Origin: an uncultured Pseudomonadota bacterium
Lineage (GTDB): Bacteria; Babelota; Babeliae; Babelales; RVW-14
NCBI GenBank assembly: GCA_964354855.1
Contig: CAYHBO010000001.1
Coordinates: 31,045-95,044, forward strand
Length of the DNA stretch: 64,000 nt
Reading direction: 5' to 3'
Shown here: positions 4,647 to 50,666 of the stretch, one piece after another
Numbering within the stretch: the first letter of the stretch is position 1
How the letters are laid out: every line of letters begins with the position of its first letter
Notes under the pieces: model-generated
Seen by the model: only the letters and a program-made list of their open reading frames with translations
The model's database searches: none
Told to the model about the DNA's origin: nothing
Position numbers and translations under genes: made by a program

Positions 4647-5594
4647 ATGAGACATTTTATGCTATTTATTTTGTTTTTTTTAAATTATTGTTTTGTGGAA
4701 AATATAAACACCATGCAGCCAAACAACCCATTAGAAACAACAGCTCAACAAAATCCACAAAGATCCTGTATGGAGTTATTTCAAGCAATATCAAATAGAA
4801 ATGAATCAGAATGCTTGAGAATCATTGCTCGCCTTAATCATATTTTAATTACATGGCCTGATGAATATGGCTGCAAACCAATGCACTATGCAGCTTGTTT
4901 CTTGCCAGAACAATCTGCTTTGAAAGTAATAAAAGCACTTATTGATCGCGGAGAAAACTGTAATTCTACGGATAATAGTCAAAAAACACCCGCTCATTAT
5001 GCCATGGAAACAGGAAAATTTAATTTAGTTAAATATCTTGTTAAAGAAATGCGAACATTTCTAATTAAAGATTCGAATGGAAACTCCTTAATGGATATTG
5101 CCAGAAAAACAAATAACAACGACATGCTTACCTATTTTCAAAATCTTTATGATGAAATAGGCCTTACTTGTGCAACTGGACTATTTCCTTATGGCTTCTT
5201 TTTTAAATTTCAAAATATAGCGTATTTTTATACTGATCTTTATTGTGGACTAACATGGCGAATTAAGAATTATCTAGATCAATTTCCCGAACACGTAAAT
5301 ATTACAATCGGAGAAACTCAACGAACCCCTCTTCATTATATAGCAATGGCATCCAAAAACATTGTACAAGAAGATCTTGCAATAGAAATAATTGAATATC
5401 TCCTTTTAAAAGGCGCAAATCCAAGAATTCAAGACGCACAAAGAAGAACCCCTATGCACTATGCCGCAGAAAACGGCAGTCTTGTTCTTATGATTATTCT
5501 TGCAACAGACGAAAGCGATCTTGATACTCCTGATCATAATCAAGAAACTCCTACAAGTATTTCCGTGCGATGTAAATTTATTAATACTCCCTAA
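4647..5594 (+). CDS. secreted ankyrin-repeat protein
   Basis: Leader ends ...NTMQP. ANK motifs include GCKPMHYAA, KTPAHYAMETGKFNLVKYLV and RTPMHYAAENGSLVLMIIL...GANP. Confidence 0.8.
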   Translation: MRHFMLFILFFLNYCFVENINTMQPNNPLETTAQQNPQRSCMELFQAISNRNESECLRIIARLNHILITWPDEYGCKPMHYAACFLPEQSALKVIKALIDRGENCNSTDNSQKTPAHYAMETGKFNLVKYLVKEMRTFLIKDSNGNSLMDIARKTNNNDMLTYFQNLYDEIGLTCATGLFPYGFFFKFQNIAYFYTDLYCGLTWRIKNYLDQFPEHVNITIGETQRTPLHYIAMASKNIVQEDLAIEIIEYLLLKGANPRIQDAQRRTPMHYAAENGSLVLMIILATDESDLDTPDHNQETPTSISVRCKFINTP

Positions 5595-6744: not shown

Positions 6745-7461
6745 TTAACTACTTATTAATTTTTGTGCATTCTTACTTCGTTGTTCGTCTTTGCGAAAAA
6801 GAAAATAACTCGCCGAAGAGGAAAACGAAGATATGAGCTCAGTTCTTTCTAATAAAAAAACTAATGTCTTTTTCATACTCCACGAATTTGGATCGTTAAG
6901 TAATATATATCCACCATTTTTTACTTTAAAAAAATAAGTCGTCGCATCTTGATAAAGGGTCGTTTCATTTTTACTTCCATCAAAGTGAATAAAATCTATG
7001 GTTTCATCTTCAAACAAATGAATGGCCGTTTGTGATGTCTGCCTTACTAAAGAACCGTATTGATTCAATTTATTTTGATTAAGTAATAAGATTGCTTGCC
7101 GATAGAAATGCTCATAATCCAAGCTATTCCACCAAGCATGATTGGGATCATTAACATTAAACCCCTTAATCGCTTCTTGAGCACTCCAAGCATCAATACC
7201 AAAAGCATACCCTGCACCATTATACTGCAATGTTTTAATGATAGGGAACAATGACTTTCCCGAAAAAGTTCCAATTTCAACACAGTACCGTAACTGTTTT
7301 TCTTTTATCAAGTCCATCATCAATCCAGCCTTCTCTGGAGAACACCATCCAGAAATATTTTCTATTTTCACGACAACTTCATCTTTAAAAGATTGCCAAT
7401 CACCTTGTGCTATCAAAGACAACGTTGTTACAGATAAAACAAATGAAATTAATTTAATCAT
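6745..7461 (-). CDS. class I SAM-dependent methyltransferase (O-methyltransferase-like) with N-terminal hydrophobic leader
   Basis: CVEIGTFSGKS (motif I-like) and IDFIHFDG. The start is placed at the internal ATG (MIKLISFVL...) to avoid overlap with the upstream gene. Confidence 0.6.
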   Translation of the reverse strand: MIKLISFVLSVTTLSLIAQGDWQSFKDEVVVKIENISGWCSPEKAGLMMDLIKEKQLRYCVEIGTFSGKSLFPIIKTLQYNGAGYAFGIDAWSAQEAIKGFNVNDPNHAWWNSLDYEHFYRQAILLLNQNKLNQYGSLVRQTSQTAIHLFEDETIDFIHFDGSKNETTLYQDATTYFFKVKNGGYILLNDPNSWSMKKTLVFLLERTELISSFSSSASYFLFRKDEQRSKNAQKLISS

Positions 7462-7468
7462 ACAATTT

Positions 7469-9655
7469 TTACCCCAAAAAGGCCTGGTTGCCGCCTCCAT
7501 TTAGTACTAACTTATTTACCGTTAGCGTCAATTCAGTAGTTATCAATAAACGCTCATATGATACCTGAGGCTTAACGTCTTTGTTTTTTACTTCTTTAAA
7601 AAATGCCCTTAATAAATGTTCATGTCCTTTGTTAGGACTGCTTGTCTTAAGATTATCTGCAACAGCAATACCATAGCCCCGTAGTTCACGATAATCATCC
7701 ATCGTGATCGACTTGCCATCAAAAAAAATTTCCATATATTCTTTATTCATACTCGATGAGCCAGTCGAAGTAAACGTCAACGTACACACAGAACCATCAG
7801 ACATTTGCACCGTGGCAATAAAATTATCGGTACACGCAATACTCGCGATATTATGTTGTAATGGAATGGCCGAAACTGACACTGGCACTGCATCAGTTAA
7901 GAAACAAAAAAGCTCAAAGATATGACACGCTTCACCAATAATGCGCCCACCATGCTTTTCTGACTGCGTCCAATGCTCAGTAGTAAGATAGCCGACATTC
8001 ATCCGATAATTGATCATCAACGGCGTTGTTCTTTGAGTAATAAGTTTTTTGGTATGCACCATGAAGGGTGCCCATGATCGGTTAAAATCAACTGATAATA
8101 AACTTTGTGGATTATTAGCTAAGCAATTTTTTAATTGCTTAAGCTGCTCGAAATTTACGACGGCAGGTTTTTCGGCAAAAACTGCTTTACCATACTCAAG
8201 AAATTTTATGATTTGTTCGCTATGAAAATAGTGAGGCGTTGCTATGACTACGGCATGAATATCAGGATTATCTAACAACTGTTCATAAGTTGTACTTACG
8301 TTTTGGATTTTGTACTGGCGAGATGCATTGATTGCAACACTATTCACCGTATCAACCACTGTATGTAATGAAACATTTTTAATCGATGACAGTATCGGCA
8401 GTAACTTAACTTTACAAAAACCACCGGCGCCGATAACGGCAACATTGATAGTGGAATGTCCTTCGACAGGTTCAGGATGAGCGGGATAGTAAGTAATGTC
8501 GTTGCGCCCCGATGGAGCGAGTGAGTAGAGGGGAGCTATGGCATCCTTATACCTCAATACAATTCCTAAACTCTGCTGCGTCTGCAACTTTTCATAAGCA
8601 AGATCAGCCTGCTCAAAAGAAAATTCATGTTGAATCAGCGGCTCAATAGAAACTTTACCATCTTCAACTAATCGGGCAAAAAGTTCCATGTTACGATTCT
8701 CCGTCCAACGAACATAGGCATACGGATAATCATTTCCTTCACGCTCATAAGTCGCATCATAACGACCAGGTCCGTAAGAACATGAAATCAGCAGATCGAT
8801 TTCTTTGGTGTAAAACTGCTCACGATCAAAATCAAGTTTCACATCACCAACAATTACTACCTTACCTTTGCGGCGCGTAACCTGCATCGCGTCATTAATC
8901 AAATCACCCGTGCTACTTGCAGCGGTAATAATAACCGTATCAACCCCCTGATGACTTGTTGCGAACGCAATGCTCTTACGCCAATCTTCTTGTTTAGGAT
9001 TAAAAACATAATCGGCTCCAAACTTTTTAGCGAGCCCTATACGACTATCTTGTACATCAACACCAAAGACCCGCGCACCAGAAAGCTTACAAAGTTGAAC
9101 CGTAAGCTGACCTAAAAGCCCGAGCCCAACTACGCACACATTTTCACCAAGCTCAACATGCGCACGACGAACGGCTTGCATCGCAATCGCCCCAATGGTA
9201 GTAATGCTGGCATCTTTTAATGAAGCCTCATGATTAAGTTTAACCATAAGATTTTCCGGAACGACTACAACTTGCGCATGATTTGCGCTGCCGGATCCCC
9301 CACAAGCCACAAAATCTCCAACATGAAATCGCGTAACTCTAACCCCTACACCAATCACTACCCCTGAACAGGAATAACCAACTGGCAACACTTGAGTCAT
9401 AGAGCCTTTAATGAGTGACGTAGTCCCCTGCAGACCATTTTCTTTAAGCGAACCAAGAACTTTAGTCGTACTTTGACTTATGTTTGAAACAAACTTTTGA
9501 TAAATATTTTTACCAGAATTCGTAACGGTTGCATACTCGGTTCCACTGCTGATAAATGAATAATGAACTTCAACAAGAACTTCTTTTTCCCCAAGAAGGG
9601 GAATGTCTGTATCGAATAATTGCGCTTTCCCGGCCTGCAAAAAAACCTGTTTCAT
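7469..9655 (-). CDS. bi-domain oxidoreductase (MDR zinc-ADH-like N-terminus plus Gfo/Idh/MocA C-terminus)
   Basis: The N-terminal half has an MDR fold (GDFVACGG...VVGLGLLG). The C-terminal half has INVAVIGAGGF plus a Gfo/Idh/MocA C-terminal region. A PE2 repeat is inserted in frame at the domain junction (APSGRN...AHPEPVEGHS). Start could be TTG at 9664. Confidence 0.8.
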   Translation of the reverse strand: MKQVFLQAGKAQLFDTDIPLLGEKEVLVEVHYSFISSGTEYATVTNSGKNIYQKFVSNISQSTTKVLGSLKENGLQGTTSLIKGSMTQVLPVGYSCSGVVIGVGVRVTRFHVGDFVACGGSGSANHAQVVVVPENLMVKLNHEASLKDASITTIGAIAMQAVRRAHVELGENVCVVGLGLLGQLTVQLCKLSGARVFGVDVQDSRIGLAKKFGADYVFNPKQEDWRKSIAFATSHQGVDTVIITAASSTGDLINDAMQVTRRKGKVVIVGDVKLDFDREQFYTKEIDLLISCSYGPGRYDATYEREGNDYPYAYVRWTENRNMELFARLVEDGKVSIEPLIQHEFSFEQADLAYEKLQTQQSLGIVLRYKDAIAPLYSLAPSGRNDITYYPAHPEPVEGHSTINVAVIGAGGFCKVKLLPILSSIKNVSLHTVVDTVNSVAINASRQYKIQNVSTTYEQLLDNPDIHAVVIATPHYFHSEQIIKFLEYGKAVFAEKPAVVNFEQLKQLKNCLANNPQSLLSVDFNRSWAPFMVHTKKLITQRTTPLMINYRMNVGYLTTEHWTQSEKHGGRIIGEACHIFELFCFLTDAVPVSVSAIPLQHNIASIACTDNFIATVQMSDGSVCTLTFTSTGSSSMNKEYMEIFFDGKSITMDDYRELRGYGIAVADNLKTSSPNKGHEHLLRAFFKEVKNKDVKPQVSYERLLITTELTLTVNKLVLNGGGNQAFLG
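8458..8536 (-). repeat. PE2 composite element in frame in the bi-domain oxidoreductase
   Basis: The reverse complement reads GCTCCCCTCTACTCACTCGCTCCATCGGGGCGCAACG...CGCTCATCCTGAACCTGTCGAAGGAC. Confidence 0.8.
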
Positions 9656-13101: not shown

Positions 13102-13229
13102 TGTAAAAATATGCCCTTTCGTTATACCAATCTTTTAAGTATCTCTCAAGATCATTGAATTCTAACAGCCAAAAAACTATGTTGAGTATTATTTCAAACG
13201 ATACCTATGGTGTTATTTTAAGGAGTCAT

Positions 13230-15254
13230 ATGAAATCACTCAGCTTTTTTTGTAAATTTATTACCGGGGTTATCTTATCTTTAGGGATCATTATTTCTGA
13301 AACTATACACGCCCAAGAAATAAGAATTATTTCTTCTAATATTTTAGGTGAAGATGCTTATAAGAAATTTGTAAAGTGCGAAAAAATGGACTTTACAAAA
13401 CGCGCAAAAGCTTTTACAGCCTTCTTAAAAACCCAAGGGCCTGACGTTATGTGCTTACAAGAAGCAGATGCTTCATGGGCTACTGAACTACAAAAAATAA
13501 CTGACTACACCTTCCATTGTAACCAAAGCTCATATCTTGCCATCTTATTTAATCCTAAAAAATTAATTTTGATAGAAACAATTACTGACATTCAACATGA
13601 AAACCAAAGCAAAGGTATTCAAGCTTATCGATTTAAAACCATGACAGGACAAGAATTCGTTGTGATAAATATTCATGCATTGTTTAAGCCTGCAGCTCAA
13701 ACGTATGAATATGATCACCAAAAAACCTTAACCCCTCTAACAAACATTCCCGTCTTCGCCATGGGTGATTTAAATACAGGGTCAACTAATAATGCCACGT
13801 TCTTTCCAACACTATTCAAAGATTTTCAAGAACTTACAAAAGAAATTACCGTTACTTCACGAAATGTTAACACTAATCAGCCAGAAAAACTTGATTACAT
13901 CTATGGCCGCAACATTGATAAACTTGGCATAATAGACTCTGTATGTACCGTTCCCTCTTGCAGTAAAAATAATGTTAAATTACTTTTACCACACGTCGCC
14001 AGCAAAGCATTTAATACAGCTGACGAAAACAATTTCTACTCAGATCATGCCGCCGTTATAGTAACTATTACTCTCCCGGAAAAAGAACCTACCTATAGCC
14101 ATCCTACAATACTTGGAATTGTAGAATGGGACACTGATGGATTCTTAATTTTGAAAAAAGATAATGGAACGATAGTTAGGGTTGCACCTAATTCAAAAAA
14201 TCCTATACAGGTTTACATCATCGACAGATCCAAGCCGGGACAAGAAAATTTTGGGTTTAAGAAAGACGATAAAGTGGCTCGCGATTACTCCACAACAACG
14301 CTCACGCCTCCACCAGCAAACATTCCGGGCAAAGCCACCGTCAACGAACTTTCCAAACTCAAAGGATCTCTAGAACAAGTCGGCGAAACCATTAAGTTCT
14401 TACAAAAAAAATTAAAAAACTTACAAAAAACAATCCCACAAGCACCATCGCAACAAAAAGAACCTCAATTAAATACAACAGACAATGTTTACATCACGCT
14501 TGTACAAGGCGCCGATCTTCCATACCAACGCTTTGTAAATTGGCAAAAATCAGCAACAGTAAACCCTGCAAATTCAAGTTTAAATTCTGGAGGACTCGGA
14601 GAAGGTGCTTTTATTGAAGCAGCAACCGGCAATAGCGCTTGGGGAGATTTACTTAAAAAAAATAGAACATACTGGGAAGGTAAGGGTTGGACATCTGGCG
14701 ATAAGGCAAAAGGAAATGCCGTTATTTCTGATGCTGGCAACTTATGCACAGCGCAACTTATGAATTATATCATTCATGCCGTAGGGCCCTGTTTAGGTAA
14801 AACAGAGGGTAGAAAGCTCATATTAAAAGAAACGTACGAAAGTATTTTGGCGTTTGCCGACATGAAGCCATCAGATGATCTTGTTAAAATCGGACTTGGA
14901 GATAAAAATAATTACAAAGGCCTTGAGGCTGTTGCGATAAGCCTCGCTGGACTAGGCTCATGGGTGGGGGACCAAGGATTAGGAGTTGAAAGCAAACTTG
15001 TTATTGGCTATGTCCTCGATTACCTTAAAGCTTATCCAACATCACAACTCAAAGAGGTTCGATTTATTACCTACTCTAAAGAAGAATACGATATTTTTAA
15101 GACAGCACTTACATCTTTTGTCTCCCAAAATCGCCTCAAAATAGCAAACAACATTCCCTCTAATTTATTAACTACACTAAATCAAAGTTGCGTAAAAAAT
15201 CCAACAGGATATAAATCAAAAAATACCCCTTTAATTTTCACACTAATACGATAA
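13230..15254 (+). CDS. secreted endonuclease/exonuclease/phosphatase (EEP) domain - macrodomain fusion protein
   Basis: AAGGAG RBS precedes the ATG at 13230. EEP motifs: DVMCLQEAD, GDLN, YSDHAAVIV. Macro motifs at about 14487-15120: VNPANSSLNSGGLGEGAFIEAATG, YIIHAVGP, VRFITYSKEEYDIF. Confidence 0.8.
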   Translation: MKSLSFFCKFITGVILSLGIIISETIHAQEIRIISSNILGEDAYKKFVKCEKMDFTKRAKAFTAFLKTQGPDVMCLQEADASWATELQKITDYTFHCNQSSYLAILFNPKKLILIETITDIQHENQSKGIQAYRFKTMTGQEFVVINIHALFKPAAQTYEYDHQKTLTPLTNIPVFAMGDLNTGSTNNATFFPTLFKDFQELTKEITVTSRNVNTNQPEKLDYIYGRNIDKLGIIDSVCTVPSCSKNNVKLLLPHVASKAFNTADENNFYSDHAAVIVTITLPEKEPTYSHPTILGIVEWDTDGFLILKKDNGTIVRVAPNSKNPIQVYIIDRSKPGQENFGFKKDDKVARDYSTTTLTPPPANIPGKATVNELSKLKGSLEQVGETIKFLQKKLKNLQKTIPQAPSQQKEPQLNTTDNVYITLVQGADLPYQRFVNWQKSATVNPANSSLNSGGLGEGAFIEAATGNSAWGDLLKKNRTYWEGKGWTSGDKAKGNAVISDAGNLCTAQLMNYIIHAVGPCLGKTEGRKLILKETYESILAFADMKPSDDLVKIGLGDKNNYKGLEAVAISLAGLGSWVGDQGLGVESKLVIGYVLDYLKAYPTSQLKEVRFITYSKEEYDIFKTALTSFVSQNRLKIANNIPSNLLTTLNQSCVKNPTGYKSKNTPLIFTLIR

Positions 15255-19432: not shown

Positions 19433-20290
19433 TTACGCTGCAAGCAACAAGCCCATTTGATAATATATATTTAATCCAACAGAATCTAGCCTTTGTGACG
19501 CTATCACTCTAGCAGTTACATTAACAGGAGTTTCGCCATTACAAACAATATTTCGATTCGCCCCTGCAATAATTAATGTATGCATAATTTTTAACGCATC
19601 TTCATTTGCATGAACATCAACATTGGCAACAATATGCAACGCTGTTTCACCAAAACAATTTGTGTGATTAATAAAAGCTAGAATATCAGACCGTGAACAA
19701 AGCTGACGCACTTTTACCAAACTACCAACCAAGCAAGCATCTAAGAGTATATCCCCGAAAGAATTATCTTGAGAATCAAAAACGCCTTGTATTCTCAAAC
19801 ACTCACACACATCCTGGTCATTACAAGTTGTTACCGCAGAAACAAGAGAGACTCCTTGCTTACTGACAACTTGTAAGGCAGTTTTCCCCTCATGATTTTT
19901 AACATACACAGATGCCCGACCTTCTTTTATCAAAATAAAAGCTTTAGTCCATTGCCCACCCATTACAGCAAAATGTAACGCTGTATTGCCATCTTCATCT
20001 TTGGCATTAACCATAGCGCTTTCACTATGAACTATTGCTCGCAACTGTTCAACGTCACCAGACATTACCGCAACCATCAAAGGCGTCGTCCCTGTTCTAT
20101 GAGTTACCGCGAAATTTACCCCCGCATCAACTTGACGATAGAGATCTTTAGTTTGTTGATAATAAACAACCAAAACAGCATCAGTTTTTTGTCCAAATGC
20201 CCCTAAAGTATATGAATTAACATCCGGATTCATAGCATACATATTACTAATAAAACAAAGGCCAGTCGCAATTAACATTAATTTTTTCAT
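19433..20290 (-). CDS. secreted ankyrin-repeat protein
   Basis: Leader ...NMYAMNP. ANK motifs: GTTPLMVAVMSGDVEQL, DGNTALHFAVMGG, GKTALQV, GETALHIVA. Confidence 0.85.
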   Translation of the reverse strand: MKKLMLIATGLCFISNMYAMNPDVNSYTLGAFGQKTDAVLVVYYQQTKDLYRQVDAGVNFAVTHRTGTTPLMVAVMSGDVEQLRAIVHSESAMVNAKDEDGNTALHFAVMGGQWTKAFILIKEGRASVYVKNHEGKTALQVVSKQGVSLVSAVTTCNDQDVCECLRIQGVFDSQDNSFGDILLDACLVGSLVKVRQLCSRSDILAFINHTNCFGETALHIVANVDVHANEDALKIMHTLIIAGANRNIVCNGETPVNVTARVIASQRLDSVGLNIYYQMGLLLAA

Positions 20291-21933: not shown

Positions 21934-23211
21934 ATGAAAAACAGATATGGTCTATTATTTGTTATCTTTTTAGAGGGAGTATCTATTTGCGCAACTCCAG
22001 CCACCATTACTAAATCAAAAGAAATATCAAAAGTAGGAACCAAGCAACTTAACGTCATGGTGTATTTTGCCGGCAACAATGACCTTTACGACATATGCGT
22101 TAAACAGATGCAACAGATGGCGGTCATTGGCTCTTTGTTTCATGTAAATTTTATTACGCAGCTTGATGTTTTAAATGAACACAAAGTAAAAAGATATTAC
22201 ATAGCAAAGAACGATATTATTGAACTTGAAGAAATATCAGAAGGCCCTGAAGCCATTAGTGGCACCCCCGCAAGCCTCGCATCCTTTGTACAATGGGGTA
22301 TGGAAAAATTTCCTGCACGAGATTTATTTTTAATTATTTCTAACCATGGTGATGGCATCAAAGATCGCAATTACTGGAGTCACGCTAAAACCAAACGCGG
22401 TATAGCCATCAATAACCATGCCAACTGTTATCTCACCAATCAAGGCCTTGAAGAAGCTCTTAGGTTTATTTCCCAACGCGTTCTTGGTGGACGCAAGATT
22501 TCGCTCGTACTTACGGATGCATGCTTTATGTCAATGGTCGAAATTTGCTCTCAAATTAAGCGCTCGGTAAAACTTTTCGTAGGCTCTCAAGACACAGAAC
22601 CATTTCTTGGCTATAATTATACCGATCTTTTTAGCGTTTTCACCGACTCTGATGGAGATCATCTAAATTCAGAAAGATTTGCTCGATGGGCAGTAGATAG
22701 TTATATCAACGAACATAAAAATTCCGGGAAATCAATCACACATGCAGCTATTAACCTAGAATCCATTGAAAAAGTTGAAGACAACCTTAAACAATTAGCA
22801 CTCTTATGTTCCGAATGCATCGACCAAAAACCTGAGTTTTTTGAAGCAATATATAACATTAGAGAACATACGAACATCAAATTTAGAGACTTAGATTATA
22901 TCGATTTGCACCACTTTTATAACGACTTAATCAACATTATTACTCCAATGCTATCAGAAAAGTCTCATCGACGTCGCGAGGTTGTACGCCTTGCACTCGA
23001 AGGAAAATCATTACTGGGTGATTGTATTCTTGCAAACCAAACCGGCCCTATAAATCCTGGGGCCATGGGCCTGTCACTTTATTTTCCAATACACACGATC
23101 CATCAATCATATTATCCAACTATTTTTAATCAAAAAACGGGCTGGAGTACATTTTTAAAGACGTACTTATACCGCTTGTATCACACATTAAGCAGGAAAG
23201 CAGGGGCCTAG
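21934..23211 (+). CDS. clostripain-like (C11) cysteine peptidase, secreted
   Basis: Signal peptide. NVMVYFAGNNDL, His motif ISNHGDG and Cys motif TDACFMS have C11-like spacing. Confidence 0.65.
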   Translation: MKNRYGLLFVIFLEGVSICATPATITKSKEISKVGTKQLNVMVYFAGNNDLYDICVKQMQQMAVIGSLFHVNFITQLDVLNEHKVKRYYIAKNDIIELEEISEGPEAISGTPASLASFVQWGMEKFPARDLFLIISNHGDGIKDRNYWSHAKTKRGIAINNHANCYLTNQGLEEALRFISQRVLGGRKISLVLTDACFMSMVEICSQIKRSVKLFVGSQDTEPFLGYNYTDLFSVFTDSDGDHLNSERFARWAVDSYINEHKNSGKSITHAAINLESIEKVEDNLKQLALLCSECIDQKPEFFEAIYNIREHTNIKFRDLDYIDLHHFYNDLINIITPMLSEKSHRRREVVRLALEGKSLLGDCILANQTGPINPGAMGLSLYFPIHTIHQSYYPTIFNQKTGWSTFLKTYLYRLYHTLSRKAGA

Positions 23212-23260
23212 AAAAAACATCCACTTTGTTATAGTCATTTGATAATCGATAGGATATCCC

Positions 23261-23824
23261 ATGGAAAAAAAGACGTTACTCAATGAGCTCACCAAAAAAT
23301 ATAAAAATTGCCAAGGCTGCCCACTCGCAAAGCTCGGTAGAACTCAAGTTGTTTTCGGCGTCGGCAACCCTGATACCAAGCTTATGTTTATCGGTGAAGC
23401 TCCGGGACGAGATGAGGATCTTAACGGCGAACCATTCATAGGTCGCTCTGGAAAATTACTCACACAAATTATTGAAGACATGGGTCTTTCACGGAGCGAA
23501 GTTTATATTACTAATGTCGTCAAAAGCAGACCACCCAATAACCGAACCCCAATAAAACAAGAACGCGAAGCTTGTAAAACATTAATTTTGGTAAAAGAGA
23601 TCGACATCATTAAACCAAAAATCATCTGTACCCTCGGGTCACCGGCAACTAAAGCACTTCTTGGAGATGATATACAAATTTCACAGGCTCGTGGTAAATT
23701 TGCTGAGTATCGCGGCATCCCAGTCATGCCAACCTATCACCCGGCATATTTACTACGTAATCCCATTGCAAAACATACAGTGTGGGAAGATATGAAAAAA
23801 ATTATGGAAGAACTTAAAGATTGA
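23261..23824 (+). CDS. uracil-DNA glycosylase, family 4
   Basis: C..C...R.QVVFG.GNP, GEAPGRDEDLNGEPFIGRSGKLL, HPAYLLRNP. Confidence 0.9.
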   Translation: MEKKTLLNELTKKYKNCQGCPLAKLGRTQVVFGVGNPDTKLMFIGEAPGRDEDLNGEPFIGRSGKLLTQIIEDMGLSRSEVYITNVVKSRPPNNRTPIKQEREACKTLILVKEIDIIKPKIICTLGSPATKALLGDDIQISQARGKFAEYRGIPVMPTYHPAYLLRNPIAKHTVWEDMKKIMEELKD

Positions 23825-40713: not shown

Positions 40714-41781
40714 CTACCGTAATGGGGTAGGATCTTTTCTACATAAAGGGCACGTAGGATTACTCTTTAAGCAATCGTTAATACACTTTTTATGAAACTG
40801 ATTTTTGCAACAGTTAGTAAAGACAACATTCTTTACAAGCGACTCAAGACAAATAGGACATATATCACTTTCAGCCCCCGCAACAACCCCAGAAGAAGTA
40901 CCACTTTCTGCTTCTTGAGTAAGAGTAACAATAGCCGCTGTTAATTCAATAATCTTTTCGGAAAGTCGCGCTGAAGAGGAAAGAAGATTTTTATTCTCTT
41001 CTTTTTGTTTCTGAAGAACAGCTTTAACCTGATTGTATTTAGTAATTTTTGGTTCAAGAACTTTCTTTTTATATTCTTCATAACAAGATTGAAACTCATG
41101 ATGATTTCCTATTCTTTGAACACATTCTGCAACAGGAATAAAGGCATCTTCAAGTTTCTTTACCATAACAGCTATCTGTGGCTGTAAGCCTTCAATTTTA
41201 GTTTTAATTCCTTGCACATCAACCTTTGTTTCTACAAATTTAGCGGCAATTGAACCCTTGTTTTCCGACAACTGCTTCTTAAGTTCTTCGCTTATCTTTG
41301 ACGCTTGAACTCTTAATTTTTTCAAGTCTCTGTAGGCCACATAAAGAGAGGCTTCCCCTGGGTAGCTTTTTTTCGCATACGCCACCAAGTCTTCATTCTT
41401 TAATGGCAATTTTCCTGGAATAGATTCAACGAATTTTTTTGCATCATCAAGCTGTTTTGCAATATCATTATGCAAGGATTCAAACACACCACGCTCTTGA
41501 TTTTCTTTCCACTCAACTGTTTGAGGAAGTACCGCTAAACAGGTCAAGCCCCCAGCAAATAGCCCACAAATTGAAGCCCAAAGCATTTCTTTTGTGCCAA
41601 TAGTCTTCTCTTTTTTATATTTATCCCAAGCAAGCTTTCCACATAATCCCGCAAGCCCTACTCCGGCTGAAATACCAAATACTGCATTTTTACTTACATC
41701 TATACTTGGACTTGTTTGTCCTGCACAAGAAAGCATAAATAATAAAATAAGCGCTTTAATTCGTCTATAATTAAATAACAT
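40714..41781 (-). CDS. membrane-anchored coiled-coil protein with C-terminal RING-H2-like zinc finger
   Basis: Leader plus 2 TM segments and a long coiled-coil. The C-terminus CPICLESLVKNVVFTNCCKNQFHKKCINDCLKSNPTCPLCRK (about 40717-40860) matches the eukaryotic RING-H2 pattern C-x2-C...C-x-H-x-F-H-x2-C-I..W-L.....CP-x-CR. The H4 position is N, and an extra adjacent Cys is present. Confidence 0.75.
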   Translation of the reverse strand: MLFNYRRIKALILLFMLSCAGQTSPSIDVSKNAVFGISAGVGLAGLCGKLAWDKYKKEKTIGTKEMLWASICGLFAGGLTCLAVLPQTVEWKENQERGVFESLHNDIAKQLDDAKKFVESIPGKLPLKNEDLVAYAKKSYPGEASLYVAYRDLKKLRVQASKISEELKKQLSENKGSIAAKFVETKVDVQGIKTKIEGLQPQIAVMVKKLEDAFIPVAECVQRIGNHHEFQSCYEEYKKKVLEPKITKYNQVKAVLQKQKEENKNLLSSSARLSEKIIELTAAIVTLTQEAESGTSSGVVAGAESDICPICLESLVKNVVFTNCCKNQFHKKCINDCLKSNPTCPLCRKDPTPLR

Positions 41782-47418: not shown

Positions 47419-48564
47419 TTATTCTAAATCTTCATTACTTTTATCATCAAGAATGGTATCAGTATCCAAGAAACTATTATTAATACTTTCCCGATCTATA
47501 GCACTAAGAGAACCTTCTTCAGCTCTTTGTCCAACAACATCTTGTAATTGAATTTCAACTCCCACAAGTTTAGCTGCCAAGGAAATATTTTGTCCCATTT
47601 TTCCAATGGCAATTGAGCGTTGATCTTGTGCCAACCAAACAATGGCTCTGCCATCTTCAGTAATTTCAACATTATCAATTTCAGCAGGCTTAAGACTTTG
47701 AGCAACTAATTTTTCAAAATCTTCTGTCCATTCAATTAAATCAATTTTTTCCTGGCCAAGCTCACGAAGTATCGGTTTAATACGAGCTCCACCAACTCCA
47801 ACACAGGTTCCAACAGGATCAATTTCTTTTGAACTAGATGCAACAACCGCTTTGGTTTTGTATCCAGCAATGCGTACTATTTTTTTTACCTCAACGGTAC
47901 CTTCATAAACTTCTGGAATTTCTAACTCAATTAATTTTTTAACAAATTCAGCGGAAGATCTGTCAAGAATAAGTTGATAATCTCCACGTGCAACTGACAA
48001 TACTTCTTTAAGTAAGGCTTTAATTTGGAACCCTACACGAAACTGTTCTGCTTGGGCTGATTTATCAACAGGAAGAATTGCTAAGACTTCTCCAATCTTA
48101 ACCACAAGTCCTGCGTGCTCTTTTTTATGAGCAACCCCAGTAACAATAGAGCCTTTTTTATCTTTAAATTCGTTACAGATGGCCATTTGCTCAAGTTCTC
48201 TGATCTTGGTTGCAATAATATTTTTTGCCGCAAGTATTTCTATGCGTCCAATAACTCCATCAAAGGGAACTAATATAATATCATCCAATTTTGCAGTAGC
48301 ATTAATGGCCTTTGCTTTACGAGGTGTAATCTCAATATCTTCATCTTCAACAACGGAAACTATTGTTTTTTCCGCAAGAATTTCCATATCGCCAACTTTT
48401 TTATTAAGCGATACGCTGAATTTTACGTGAGGATATTTCTTTTCATAAGCGGCTAAGATTCCGTCACAAACAATCTCTGAGACTTGCTCTCGATTAAGGC
48501 CACGTTCTTCGATTAGGCTATCAATTACTTCGGTTAGCTTCACAAGCCATCCTTTTTTTAACAT
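47419..48564 (-). CDS. nusA: transcription termination/antitermination factor NusA
   Basis: NusA N-domain, S1 and two KH modules (GPVGTCVGVGGARI-like, IAIGKMGQNISLAAKL). Lies upstream of infB. Confidence 0.95.
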   Translation of the reverse strand: MLKKGWLVKLTEVIDSLIEERGLNREQVSEIVCDGILAAYEKKYPHVKFSVSLNKKVGDMEILAEKTIVSVVEDEDIEITPRKAKAINATAKLDDIILVPFDGVIGRIEILAAKNIIATKIRELEQMAICNEFKDKKGSIVTGVAHKKEHAGLVVKIGEVLAILPVDKSAQAEQFRVGFQIKALLKEVLSVARGDYQLILDRSSAEFVKKLIELEIPEVYEGTVEVKKIVRIAGYKTKAVVASSSKEIDPVGTCVGVGGARIKPILRELGQEKIDLIEWTEDFEKLVAQSLKPAEIDNVEITEDGRAIVWLAQDQRSIAIGKMGQNISLAAKLVGVEIQLQDVVGQRAEEGSLSAIDRESINNSFLDTDTILDDKSNEDLE

Positions 48565-48846
48565 TCATTTAACTTAAGATCTTTTTCTTGGAGATATAAA
48601 AAAAGAATTATCAACAACCCACGTAGTCTATCGGAACTTTTCCAAAAAGTGAAGGCATACCGAGTACGCTTTAAGACATTTCTCATTTTTAATCTTTTCT
48701 TATTGAAAAAAAACTTTTTCTCTCCTTCTTCTTAAATATAAATATTTATATTTAGTAGTAGTAGTAGGCTCGGCGAAAATTGTTGATAACTCAAAAAAAA
48801 ATCAAAATTATATCGTTCTATAACGCGTTATCAACCGGTTTTGAAT

Positions 48847-48901
48847 TGTTGATAACTTGTGGATAACTTGTTGATAACTTGTGGATAACTTGTTGATAAC
48901 T
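48847..48901 (-). repeat. five tandem 11-bp units TTGT[T/G]GATAAC (DnaA-box-like, complementary orientation)
   Basis: Read directly. Units at 48847, 48858, 48869, 48880 and 48891, alternating the TGTTGATAA and TGTGGATAA forms. Confidence 0.9.
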
Positions 48902-48997
48902 TTTTAAGTCTTTCATTTAATCGTGCTATAAGCCTTATTCAATGGATAATTCTCTATAATAACTACCCAATAGACCTTTTCATGACAAGAAAAAAAG

Positions 48998-49042
48998 TTA
49001 TCAACAAGTTATCCACAAGTTATCAACATAGTTATCAACAAT
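48998..49042 (+). repeat. four 11-bp units GTTATC[A/C]ACAA, inverted relative to 48847-48901
   Basis: Read directly. Units at 48998, 49009 (perfect TTATCCACA), 49020 and 49032. Confidence 0.9.
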
Positions 49043-49238
49043 GAAATTTTCCCTATTTATTTCAACCTGAAACATTTAAAGATTAGATGTAATTTTTATT
49101 ATCTGAAGTTAAAAAGTTATTTATAATGGCTTATAAGTCATTAATTTCTATTAGTATATTGATCAAGGGTGGATAAATGTCCTAGGATGGTGAAGATAAG
49201 CAATTGGGCTTAAAAACGAATTATCCTAGGGGGATGCA

Positions 49239-50666
49239 ATGAAGATCTTTAGTACACAGAGCGTTTATCTTTTGAGTAAAAAAATCACATACTTGGTATC
49301 TTTTTTTGTTGTTTTCGCAGCAGGGCTTGAAGTCACTCCTGCTGCTCCTACTGCAGCAGAAAATGCTGATTGGACTATTCTTGTTTATGTGCAAGCACGT
49401 AATAATTTAAGTTCTTTTTCTGGAAGAAATTTTAGTGATATGGCGGCAGTAGGCTCAACAAAAAACCTTAATCTCTTGGTGCAATGGTATAAGCCTGAAG
49501 ATCAAGGGGTATGGCGCTATAAGATTGAAAAAAATCAACTTAATCTAGATGCTCATCTTCCTTCCCCTTCTGATGGGAATAGTGCACAGGATCTTGTTGA
49601 AGCAATGCGTTGGGCGGTCAAAAAATATCCCGCTAAAAAATATTGTTTAATTTTATGGAACCATGGAGTAGGTATTTTGGATCCAATATGGGGTAATTCC
49701 TCAGTTCAAATTAACAAAAAATATTTAATTAATAACCCAAAAATACAAATAGCGGGGATTACTACTGAAGATACAGGTTATGAGTTTGATGAAACAATGA
49801 TGCTTATGGCTGAAAATAATGTTAATAAAGGGATTCTTTTTAATGAACAAAGTAAAACCTATATGAATAATCAAGTTTTGGCTGCTGCATTAAAACAGAT
49901 TAAGAATGAGGTTTTAGATGGGAAAAAAATTGACATAATAGGCATGGATGCGTGCCTTATGGGAATGATTGAGGTTGCTTATCAGATAAAAGACTGCGCA
50001 GACTTTATGGTTACTTCTCAAGAGGTCGAACTTGCTTATGGATGGAATTATTTAGGATGGTTACAAGATCTTTCAGTAAAAATAATTTCTCCGGCTCATG
50101 TTGCTAAAGCAATTGTGCAGTCTTATGAGTCTATGTATAAAAGCAAGATTCCTTTTTATACTCAATCAGCAGTTGACTTAAATAAGGTAGAACAGCTTAA
50201 GAAGGCCGTTGATGATGTTTCTATTAATATGATGACCTGTTATGCCGTAGATGGCCTATCATTCAGCCAGGTGGTAAAAAGAGCTCGGCAGAGTTGTCAG
50301 CAATTTAGCTCGGTAAGTTATGTAGATTTACATTCTTTTATGAAAGAGCTTTCCCGTGAAGTGAAAGCTTTCTATAAGTTTGATGAAAATTTATCTACCG
50401 ATCTTATTGTTGCAATTAACATGTTAAATGGGTCTCTTGATCTGGGTGTTAAAAATGTTGAAGACATTGTCATTTCAAACGTTGCAGGGAAGCATATGAC
50501 ACAAGCACGAGGGGTATCAATTTACTTTCCCCGCTATATGATTGATCCTTCTTATGAGAGGACCTCTTTTGCTCAGGATGGTATGTGGACCGATCTTTTA
50601 AAGCATGTTTTAATTAATAGAAATCACTATCTTTCTTTGATGGGGGATGGGGTGGTAACGCCGTAA
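49239..50666 (+). CDS. clostripain-like (C11) cysteine peptidase, secreted, paralog 2
   Basis: Leader/TM segment. WTILVYVQARNNL, His motif WNHGVGI, Cys motif MDACLMG. Collinear with 21934-23211. Confidence 0.65.
   Translation: MKIFSTQSVYLLSKKITYLVSFFVVFAAGLEVTPAAPTAAENADWTILVYVQARNNLSSFSGRNFSDMAAVGSTKNLNLLVQWYKPEDQGVWRYKIEKNQLNLDAHLPSPSDGNSAQDLVEAMRWAVKKYPAKKYCLILWNHGVGILDPIWGNSSVQINKKYLINNPKIQIAGITTEDTGYEFDETMMLMAENNVNKGILFNEQSKTYMNNQVLAAALKQIKNEVLDGKKIDIIGMDACLMGMIEVAYQIKDCADFMVTSQEVELAYGWNYLGWLQDLSVKIISPAHVAKAIVQSYESMYKSKIPFYTQSAVDLNKVEQLKKAVDDVSINMMTCYAVDGLSFSQVVKRARQSCQQFSSVSYVDLHSFMKELSREVKAFYKFDENLSTDLIVAINMLNGSLDLGVKNVEDIVISNVAGKHMTQARGVSIYFPRYMIDPSYERTSFAQDGMWTDLLKHVLINRNHYLSLMGDGVVTP

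Follow-up and report, generated by a model that had tools for sequence, protein, structure and literature searches.

Gene Organization around the Gap

The window, i.e., the whole stretch of DNA analysed here, is 64 kb long, and the locus of interest in it is the intergenic gap of 674 bp (48565-49238) that separates nusA, on the minus strand, from a C11 peptidase gene, on the plus strand; an earlier note on this DNA had delimited the same gap, and we confirm it with these coordinates. The nusA gene heads a nusA-infB-lpxK run, the next two ORFs being assigned to IF-2/GTP_EFTU and LpxK by Pfam, and this run is transcribed away from the proposed origin, co-directionally with what would be its leftward fork. 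The switch in gene orientation that had been pointed out at this place is real, with all genes from 40.7 to 48.6 kb on the minus strand and mostly plus-strand genes beyond. Rfam and tRNA scans of the window gave no matches. All features discussed below are listed in Table 1, including a putative promoter upstream of nusA; related motifs (CTTCACTTTTTTGTTTTT...TAGAAT/TACACT) are found at the equivalent position in the relatives L002, L005, L014, and L018.

Table 1. Features of the nusA upstream gap and its two flanking genes (positions in the window).
Feature	Position	Strand	Remarks
nusA	47419..48564	-	Pfam NusA_N + KH_5
Isolated TTATCAACA box	48608..48616	+	Between the nusA promoter-like site and the start codon; faces the unwinding element
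Promoter-like site, TTCACT-N17-TAGACT	48625..48653	-	Upstream of nusA; putative function
DNA unwinding element, 20 bp, pure A/T	48733..48752	.	AT = 1.00
DnaA-trios, (TAG)x5 = 3'-GAT-5' x5	48753..48767	+	TRF period 3, 5 copies, 100%
Spacer GCTCGGCGAAAAT, 13 bp, GC-rich core	48768..48780	.	AT = 0.46
Trio-proximal (BUS) box TTATCAACA	48781..48789	-	Proximal-array orientation; 66 bp (6 x 11) from the first array unit
Spacer between BUS box and proximal array	48790..48845	.	Length conserved, sequence not
Sigma-70-like site, TTGATA-16-TATAAT	48834 to 48807	-	11/12 matches in promoter scan; reads towards the trios
Degenerate box TTATCAACC	48828..48836	+	Within the spacer between BUS box and proximal array
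Proximal array, five 11-bp units TTGT[T/G]GATAAC, head-to-tail	48846..48901	-	Boxes at 48847, 48858, 48869, 48880, 48891
Inter-array spacer, 96 bp	48902..48997	.	AT 0.72
Distal array, four inverted units	48997..49042	+	Boxes at 48998, 49009, 49020, 49032
Peptidase_C11 gene	49239..50666	+	Opposite side of the origin from nusA; transcribed away from it

DnaA Boxes and the Two Opposed Arrays

Boxes of the form TTATCMACA occur 20 times in the 64-kb window, when 1.97 would be expected from dinucleotide-preserving shuffles (standard deviation 1.57, maximum 9, n = 100 shuffles), and 11 of the 20 are packed into 433 bp (48608-49040), the other nine being scattered singletons. The gap thus contains a cluster of DnaA boxes far above chance, as an oriC should, and no second cluster is present within 48 kb leftward or 15 kb rightward. 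Eight boxes are exact copies of TTATCAACA (48608, 48781, 48847, 48869, 48891, 48998, 49020, and 49032), which agrees with the “at least eight” one-mismatch boxes previously announced, and three are TTATCCACA, at 48858 and 48880 on the minus strand and at 49009 on the plus strand. These last three correspond to the canonical boxes of the earlier note, all present but placed there 1 bp too high; as for the one-mismatch singles it listed, those at 48608 and 48782 (here 48781) are indeed TTATCAACA, while the one at 48828 is TTATCAACC, one further mismatch away.

Most of the clustered boxes belong to two opposed arrays, whose existence the earlier note had rightly reported with a 1-bp slip in each case: the five-unit proximal array starts at 48846, not 48847, and the four inverted units of the distal one cover 48997-49042, the distance of about 96 bp between them being correct (48902-48997). 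Tandem Repeats Finder (TRF) describes the proximal array as a repeat of period 11 with 5.2 copies and a score of 100; because TTATCAACA and TTATCCACA alternate exactly along it, the array also has a perfect 22-bp period. All its boxes are oriented towards the unwinding element. The distal array departs from strict regularity by a single unit spacing of 12 bp, and its first three units, together with their flank, mirror the proximal array perfectly over 37 nt, with 100% complementarity at a distance of 86 nt. Six boxes of the same orientation, separated by 66, 11, 11, 11, and 11 bp, share one register. The spacer between the arrays, compared by eye among eight loci, showed no conserved sequence.

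The direction assigned to such arrays, called convergent in the earlier note, depends on a convention: when boxes are read 5'-TTATCCACA-3', the proximal and distal arrays point apart, and the array closer to the AT-rich element points at that element.

A Box, Spacer, and Trio Module beside the Unwinding Element

The AT-rich run that had been proposed as unwinding element is part of a perfect 22-bp palindrome (TAAATATAAAT/ATTTATATTTA, 48733-48754), and the proposal holds, since this run belongs to the 30-mer (48732-48761) that is the least stable of all 64 kb by nearest-neighbour energy. An AT-rich, readily melted element adjacent to the boxes, another feature required of an oriC, is thus in place. 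The role of the trio-proximal box, the 13-bp spacer, and the (TAG)5 trios lying beside the AT run had been overlooked in the earlier note.

A basal unwinding system (BUS) has been described in the oriC of B. subtilis, in H. pylori, in C. difficile, and in others (Richardson 2016/2019; Pelliciari 2021, PMC8287927), and, by the published search rule, the box may have up to two mismatches and the spacer up to 16 bp (13 being the commonest length), and three or more trios 3'-GAT-5' must be present (PMC8287927). At our locus, the box, TTATCAACA, is one mismatch away from the consensus; the spacer, GCTCGGCGAAAAT, has precisely the commonest length and carries a GC cluster; and the trios, with their central A, are five perfect TAG repeats. 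The polarity is also that of a BUS, the plus strand reading, in order, the AT-rich element, (TAG)5, the spacer, and TGTTGATAA: the trios sit 5' of the box on their own strand, and the AT-rich element lies beyond them. This is the arrangement of the experimental scaffolds, in which a 5'-tail that carries the DnaA-trios likewise places them 5' of the box on their own strand (PMC8287927), and in C. difficile the GC cluster also comes ahead of the trios, with the unwinding element downstream (PMC7561715). Read at the sequence level, the succession of box, 13-bp spacer, (TAG)5, and A/T element is the published BUS layout, and the (TAG)5 repeat is predicted, by analogy, to be the single-strand binding track of a DnaA filament.

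GC Skew

Measured in 2-kb windows, the GC skew shifts at the gap from about -0.17 on the left to about +0.17 on the right. It lies between -0.08 and -0.24 across nearly all of the first 48 kb, approaching 0 only near 38-41 kb, and between +0.03 and +0.18 from 49 kb on; the cumulative G-C curve reaches its minimum within the 64-kb window at position 49067, at the outer edge of the distal array. The skew was also computed separately for the genes of each strand. To the left of the origin, it is -0.110 for plus-strand genes and -0.164 for minus-strand genes; to the right, +0.143 and +0.071, respectively. Gene by gene, the skew is positive in 12 of 12 genes on the right side and negative in 39 of 42 on the left side. 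As its sign is the same for both gene strands on each side, the shift is not an effect of gene orientation, and the negative-to-positive, strand-independent change expected of an oriC is therefore found within the 64-kb window. A reading of the same change as a terminus was dropped, a negative-to-positive change on the plus strand being the mark of an origin.

Search for dnaA

It is usual, without being a defining property, for oriC to lie next to dnaA, and this is not the case here. A regular expression for DnaA motifs had no match in the six-frame translations of the window, and tblastn with domains III-IV of E. coli DnaA gave no hit at E <= 1e-5 in the window or in the 80 related loci presented below. 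Of the 54 non-nested ORFs that reach 110 aa, 50 were scanned with Pfam, which found neither Bac_DnaA nor DnaN; the other four, located at 34.7-37.3 kb, were covered by the motif search and tblastn alone. The 10 kb past the left end of the window hold no dnaA either; MarR, a CCA-adding enzyme, S20, L28, and FtsH are encoded there. The earlier statement that no dnaA is in view was thus correct by motif search, tblastn, and Pfam. The gene is encoded in published Dependentiae genomes; among the 80 relatives, tblastn found none within 10 kb of nusA, as far as the contigs reach.

Conservation of the Locus in Dependentiae

We collected 80 related loci together with flanks of up to 10 kb, and oriented them with nusA on the plus strand. 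Their NusA proteins are 40-67% identical to that of the window, and all but a few of the records are labelled Dependentiae, TM6, Babeliales, or unclassified. The usual order of genes is C11 peptidase, uracil-DNA glycosylase (UDG), origin, nusA, and infB, so that the conserved synteny expected of an oriC among relatives is observed.

The architecture was counted in the 72 loci that extend 750 bp or more upstream of nusA; three or more boxes with no more than one mismatch, spaced by 10-12 bp, were taken as an array. Both opposed arrays are present, in constant order, in 51 of the 72; a single array was detected in 13, and none in 8 under this box definition. Four boxes is the commonest array size in the relatives. 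The trio module, searched as a box followed by 8-16 nt and then by at least three [CT]T[AT] trios, was recovered in 43/72 loci, and its geometry hardly varies: the last array box lies 65-69 bp from the BUS box in 41 of 42 loci (mode 67), and the box-to-trio spacer is of 13 or 14 bp in 41/42, with 21 and 20 loci, respectively. Among closed relatives, OY969622.1, OY969699.1, and CP074345.1 carry the module. The sequences between these elements at conserved distances differ among relatives; a search of the spacer of about 66 bp for a protein site returned only a weak, position-fixed CGAT/GATC in a minority of relatives, which we found unconvincing.

Box density and skew single out the same gap. 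In the 51 full-length loci, boxes amount to 12.9 per kb in the gap vs. 1.08 per kb elsewhere, and 48 of them show a negative-to-positive skew flip at the gap; at control points placed 5 kb to the left and to the right, such a flip is seen in 1/51 and 0/51, respectively. When every locus extending 3 kb or more to both sides is considered, the flip is present in 55 of 58, the exceptions being L023, L037, and L039. As far as the 64 kb of the window and these roughly 50 relatives show, the check on the skew minimum proposed in the earlier note thus places the minimum at the cluster.

In about two-thirds of the relatives compared for it (29/42), among them L005, L006, and L015, a mirrored second set of trios (TAATAATAG, then G/C) brackets the A/T element from the other side, and in 7 of these 29 it is followed by an inward-facing box. 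This mirrored half is absent from the window's own origin.

A Probable Chromosomal Origin and Its Functioning

Judging from its sequence features, the repeat cluster is very probably the DnaA-dependent chromosomal oriC of a Dependentiae (TM6) bacterium. The same reading had been put forward from the boxes in the earlier note, and it is now backed by the skew, the unwinding element, the module of box, 13-bp spacer, and (TAG)5, and conservation. Such a locus is a canonical DnaA-dependent oriC and not a new kind of system; an origin remote from dnaA is, alone, no surprise.

By analogy with the systems of B. subtilis, H. pylori, T. maritima, and E. coli, one may propose how it would work. DnaA would bind the boxes through its domain IV, and ATP-DnaA would line the phased sites as a head-to-tail oligomer, which would reach from the trio-proximal box over the spacer onto the TAG repeats of the plus strand; the filament, by stretching and holding this strand, would cause the adjacent A/T element to open. 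The spacer of 65-69 bp may be bent or looped, perhaps by a nucleoid protein, which would bring the array-bound oligomer to the opened strand; a bend or loop is suggested because this spacer of about 66 bp keeps its length and not its sequence. On the opposed distal array, as on the right half of E. coli oriC, another DnaA subcomplex may form and help to load the second helicase for bidirectional replication. Forks would then depart in both directions, which would explain both the outward transcription of nusA-infB and the C11 peptidase gene and the change of skew sign. The same boxes could, alongside origin function, also regulate nusA.

Comparison with Described Origins

The likeness to a BUS lies in its components (a box, a spacer of about 13 bp with a GC cluster, at least three trios, and an AT-rich element), found in the same order and polarity. 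The differences are that the module is not beside dnaA, that a single good trio-proximal box is present here with no obvious tandem pair, and that this box is in 11-bp register with a five-box array located six turns off. T. maritima offers another parallel: in its oriC, arranged as AT-rich element, TAG repeats, GC-rich stretch, and box 1, both opening and the binding of DnaA to the single strand require three TAG repeats located in the unwinding element (PMC10316083). The TAG repeats, the order of elements, the helical phasing of the boxes, and their number, about five, are common to both (PMC10316083), whereas T. maritima has a divergent 12-mer box and no opposed second array as regular as ours.

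The two arrays closely recall those of E. coli, where a left and a right array of four sites each, separated by 2 bp, have opposite orientations (Rozgaja 2011; PMC6070618). We likewise find two opposed clusters, of four or five sites each, whose 2-bp gaps account for the 11-bp phasing; in both cases the array closer to the unwinding element is directed at it, and both origins are separate from dnaA. The earlier remark that the locus is more regular than classical oriC is fair, yet such regularity is not foreign to the classical case, given the two opposed four-site clusters with 2-bp separation of E. coli oriC (PMC6070618). The nature of the sites differs: arrayed sites in E. coli are of low affinity and fed from flanking high-affinity R boxes, whereas all nine arrayed sites here (9/9) are TTATCCACA or TTATCAACA and, from their sequence, would not be of the low-affinity kind. 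Also in contrast to E. coli, we saw no GATC/SeqA clusters and no recognisable 13-mers in the gap, and identified no IHF site. The R1 box of E. coli has the same polarity relative to the unwinding element. E. coli-style opposed arrays and B. subtilis-style modules of box and trios are usually discussed as alternatives.

Within the phylum, the origin of Chromulinavorax destructans was placed from GC skew and TTATCCACA (PMC6561590); it is thus a case of the same phylum, based on the same type of evidence, and the predicted region, of about 600 bp, is comparable in size. That paper gives coordinates only, without architecture, trios, nusA linkage, or phylum comparison (PMC6561590). In the searchable literature, we found mention of origins in Dependentiae for Chromulinavorax and Babela only, of DnaA boxes in the phylum only in the Chromulinavorax paper and its preprint, and of neither a nusA-linked origin nor such an architecture, although origin databases, e.g., DoriC, may list such regions. 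The stereotyped phylum-wide design and the linkage to nusA thus appear to be undescribed in this literature.

Alternative Explanations

The cluster might instead be a locus that titrates or reactivates DnaA (datA/DARS-like), or a DnaA-controlled regulatory region of nusA-infB, with the true origin elsewhere, e.g., beside dnaA. Dense arrays of high-affinity boxes would titrate DnaA well, datA and DARS are also DnaA-box clusters away from dnaA, and the cluster lies directly upstream of the promoter-like site of nusA. That dnaA is not nearby speaks in the same direction, as does the origin of Babela massiliensis, reported from GC skew alone 152 nt upstream of dnaA (PMC4378268), which means either that this lineage differs or that one of the two predictions is imprecise. 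We nevertheless hold this explanation to be quite improbable. Neither version predicts a skew switch, observed in the window and in 48/51 relatives, nor five perfect TAG trios at the canonical distance of 13 bp from a box, nor the least stable duplex of the window right beside these trios; datA and DARS have no unwinding element, trios, or skew switch, and all three are found here. The datA/DARS-like role to which the earlier note would have fallen back thus leaves precisely these three features unexplained.

It is even harder to see the gap as one half of a bipartite origin, of the kind known in B. subtilis and H. pylori, whose second box cluster would lie outside the window, e.g., flanking dnaA; we consider this highly unlikely. 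Bipartite origins are admittedly common. In those that are known, about 1-2 kb separates the two halves, which lie around dnaA. Here no second cluster exists over 48 kb on the left or 15 kb on the right, and the gap already holds both a box-rich oligomerisation region and an unwinding module.

Least credible of all is that the repeats are the iteron or repeat region of a mobile element (an integrated plasmid, a phage, or another), or that they bind an unrelated transcription factor. The same 11-mer does occur in short arrays with 11-bp phasing in phage and microvirus genomes and in one small endosymbiont plasmid, but these matches are limited to the array itself and cover no more than 28% of the query, the locus is not flanked by rep, integrase, or phage genes, the synteny from C11 peptidase/UDG to nusA-infB extends across a phylum with NusA at 40-67% identity, and the repeat unit is the canonical DnaA box. 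A scan of viral contigs for three consecutive 11-mers retrieved three contigs, with short arrays devoid of origin features.

Implications of a Probable nusA-Linked Origin

Taking the locus as the chromosomal oriC, we venture a broader proposal, which we regard as doubtful at this stage: Dependentiae may share, across most of the phylum, one origin of fixed geometry, uncoupled from dnaA and tied to nusA, that would merge E. coli-style opposed arrays (here made of consensus boxes) with a B. subtilis-style module of box and trios, held in register about six helical turns away. Were this true, the mirrored trios of the relatives would make their unwinding module symmetric, so that DnaA could be loaded on both strands, an arrangement that is undescribed.

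The locus is close to a schematic drawing of an origin, yet a natural one, with its exact 11-bp phasing, its (TAG)5 at 13 bp, and its palindrome of pure A/T. Since about 50 diverged variants keep their spacings while their sequences drift, they make up a comparative set on the role of distances in the assembly of DnaA oligomers. The origin would also provide an anchor for an uncultivated, host-dependent phylum that is known almost entirely from metagenome bins: the gap upstream of nusA could be used to orient and check Dependentiae assemblies and to set replichore coordinates, and growth rates could be read from metagenome coverage (peak-to-trough). Among assembled sequences, an 11-kb Logan contig carrying NusA ends about 310 bp upstream of nusA, inside the origin gap.

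Mirrored Trios and Array Size in the Relatives

Among the 42 relatives' nusA loci (L-numbers) in which array, trio-proximal box and trios were measured, 29 have an A/T element closed by a mirrored trio set (TAATAATA[AG], then G/C), reverse-complementary to the CTATTATTA set across this element. In seven of these 29, an inward-facing DnaA box stands 4-14 bp past the mirrored trios, resulting in a symmetric box-trio-AT-trio-box module. Compared at 48700-48732, the window carries no mirrored trio set, and TAAGAAGAAGGAGAG occupies the corresponding place.

The distal array is expanded in some relatives, such as L044 and L066 (see the table); the number of units per array thus changes readily in evolution, though four units are the norm. 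With the box definition applied, eight loci lack an array; among them, L026 and L037 have no box whatsoever in the nusA gap, and L079 (Marinamargulisbacteria, NusA identity of 40%) probably falls outside the phylum. The skew flip at the nusA gap is absent in L023, L037 and L039; arrays are nevertheless present in L023 and L039. Further exceptional loci are L047, L056, L062 and L074. In any of the exceptional loci, the origin could have moved, the boxes could have diverged, or the assembly could be wrong.

Features of the window, the relatives' loci and the microvirus sequence, each in its own coordinates
Feature	Location	Strand	Remark
Promoter-like TTCACT-N17-TAGACT	48625-48653	minus	Between unwinding element and nusA
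Sigma-70-like promoter TTGATA-16-TATAAT	48807-48834	minus	11/12 matches, near-consensus (promoter scan)
C11 + UDG gene pair	21934-23824		nusA side of the origin
Second C11 paralogue	49239-50666		Faces the origin, orientation inverted
Eukaryote-like/host-interaction proteins	40714-41781, 4647-5594, 19433-20290, 13155-15254		
Mirrored trios (L005, L006, L015, L004, L051, L058, L065)	Just downstream of AT-rich element		
Phased boxes, L044	9321-9640		5 + 15 boxes
Phased boxes, L066	9355-9575		6 + 5 boxes
Origin-core-like stretch, L082	180-356		Microvirus

Promoter-Like Sites within the Origin Gap

Two promoter-like sites were found in the gap. The one nearer nusA is probably the promoter of this gene; a closely related motif, CTTCACTTTTTTGTTTTT...TAGAAT/TACACT, lies at the equivalent position in four relatives (L002, L005, L014 and L018), and a short hairpin directly upstream of the window's site was flagged as terminator-like. 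The second predicted promoter sits within the 66-bp spacer and is directed through the trio-proximal box and the trios into the A/T element. Transcription from it into the unwinding element could help the latter to open.

Similar Arrangements in Phages and a Plasmid

A stretch resembling the window's origin core was found in the microvirus L082 (Microviridae, bajarodmic virus 233, PQ006335.1), in a non-coding gap adjoining the replication-initiator gene. It comprises, in order, an AT-rich run, (TAT)x5, GGC, TGTTGATA/TGTTGATAA, about 45 bp and five units spaced 11 bp; four of these five units are TTGTTGATAAC, an 11-mer present identically in the window. Similarity restricted to the array was seen in other microviruses, in E. 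coli phages P483 and nasanit, and in a 3.5-kb Palibaumannia plasmid.

Assembly and Gene Order around the Origin

This organism was also assembled independently from short reads (L081, Logan contig ERR3856787_25501), and that contig ends about 310 bp upstream of nusA, inside the origin gap and before reaching the repeat arrays. Such a break is consistent with the difficulty of assembling tandem arrays and a perfect 37-nt inverted repeat.

In 36-41 of the relatives' loci, genes for a C11 peptidase and a family-4-like uracil-DNA glycosylase (UDG), at ~7400-9500, immediately precede the origin, so that the order is C11, UDG, origin and nusA. As the window's C11/UDG pair is 25 kb away from the origin, where an inverted second C11 paralogue is found instead, a rearrangement around this origin is suggested.

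Elsewhere in the window, four sites encode eukaryote-like or host-interaction proteins: one with a RING finger, two with ankyrin repeats, and one that combines endonuclease/exonuclease/phosphatase and Macro domains. Such a gene content fits the host-dependent lifestyle of Dependentiae.
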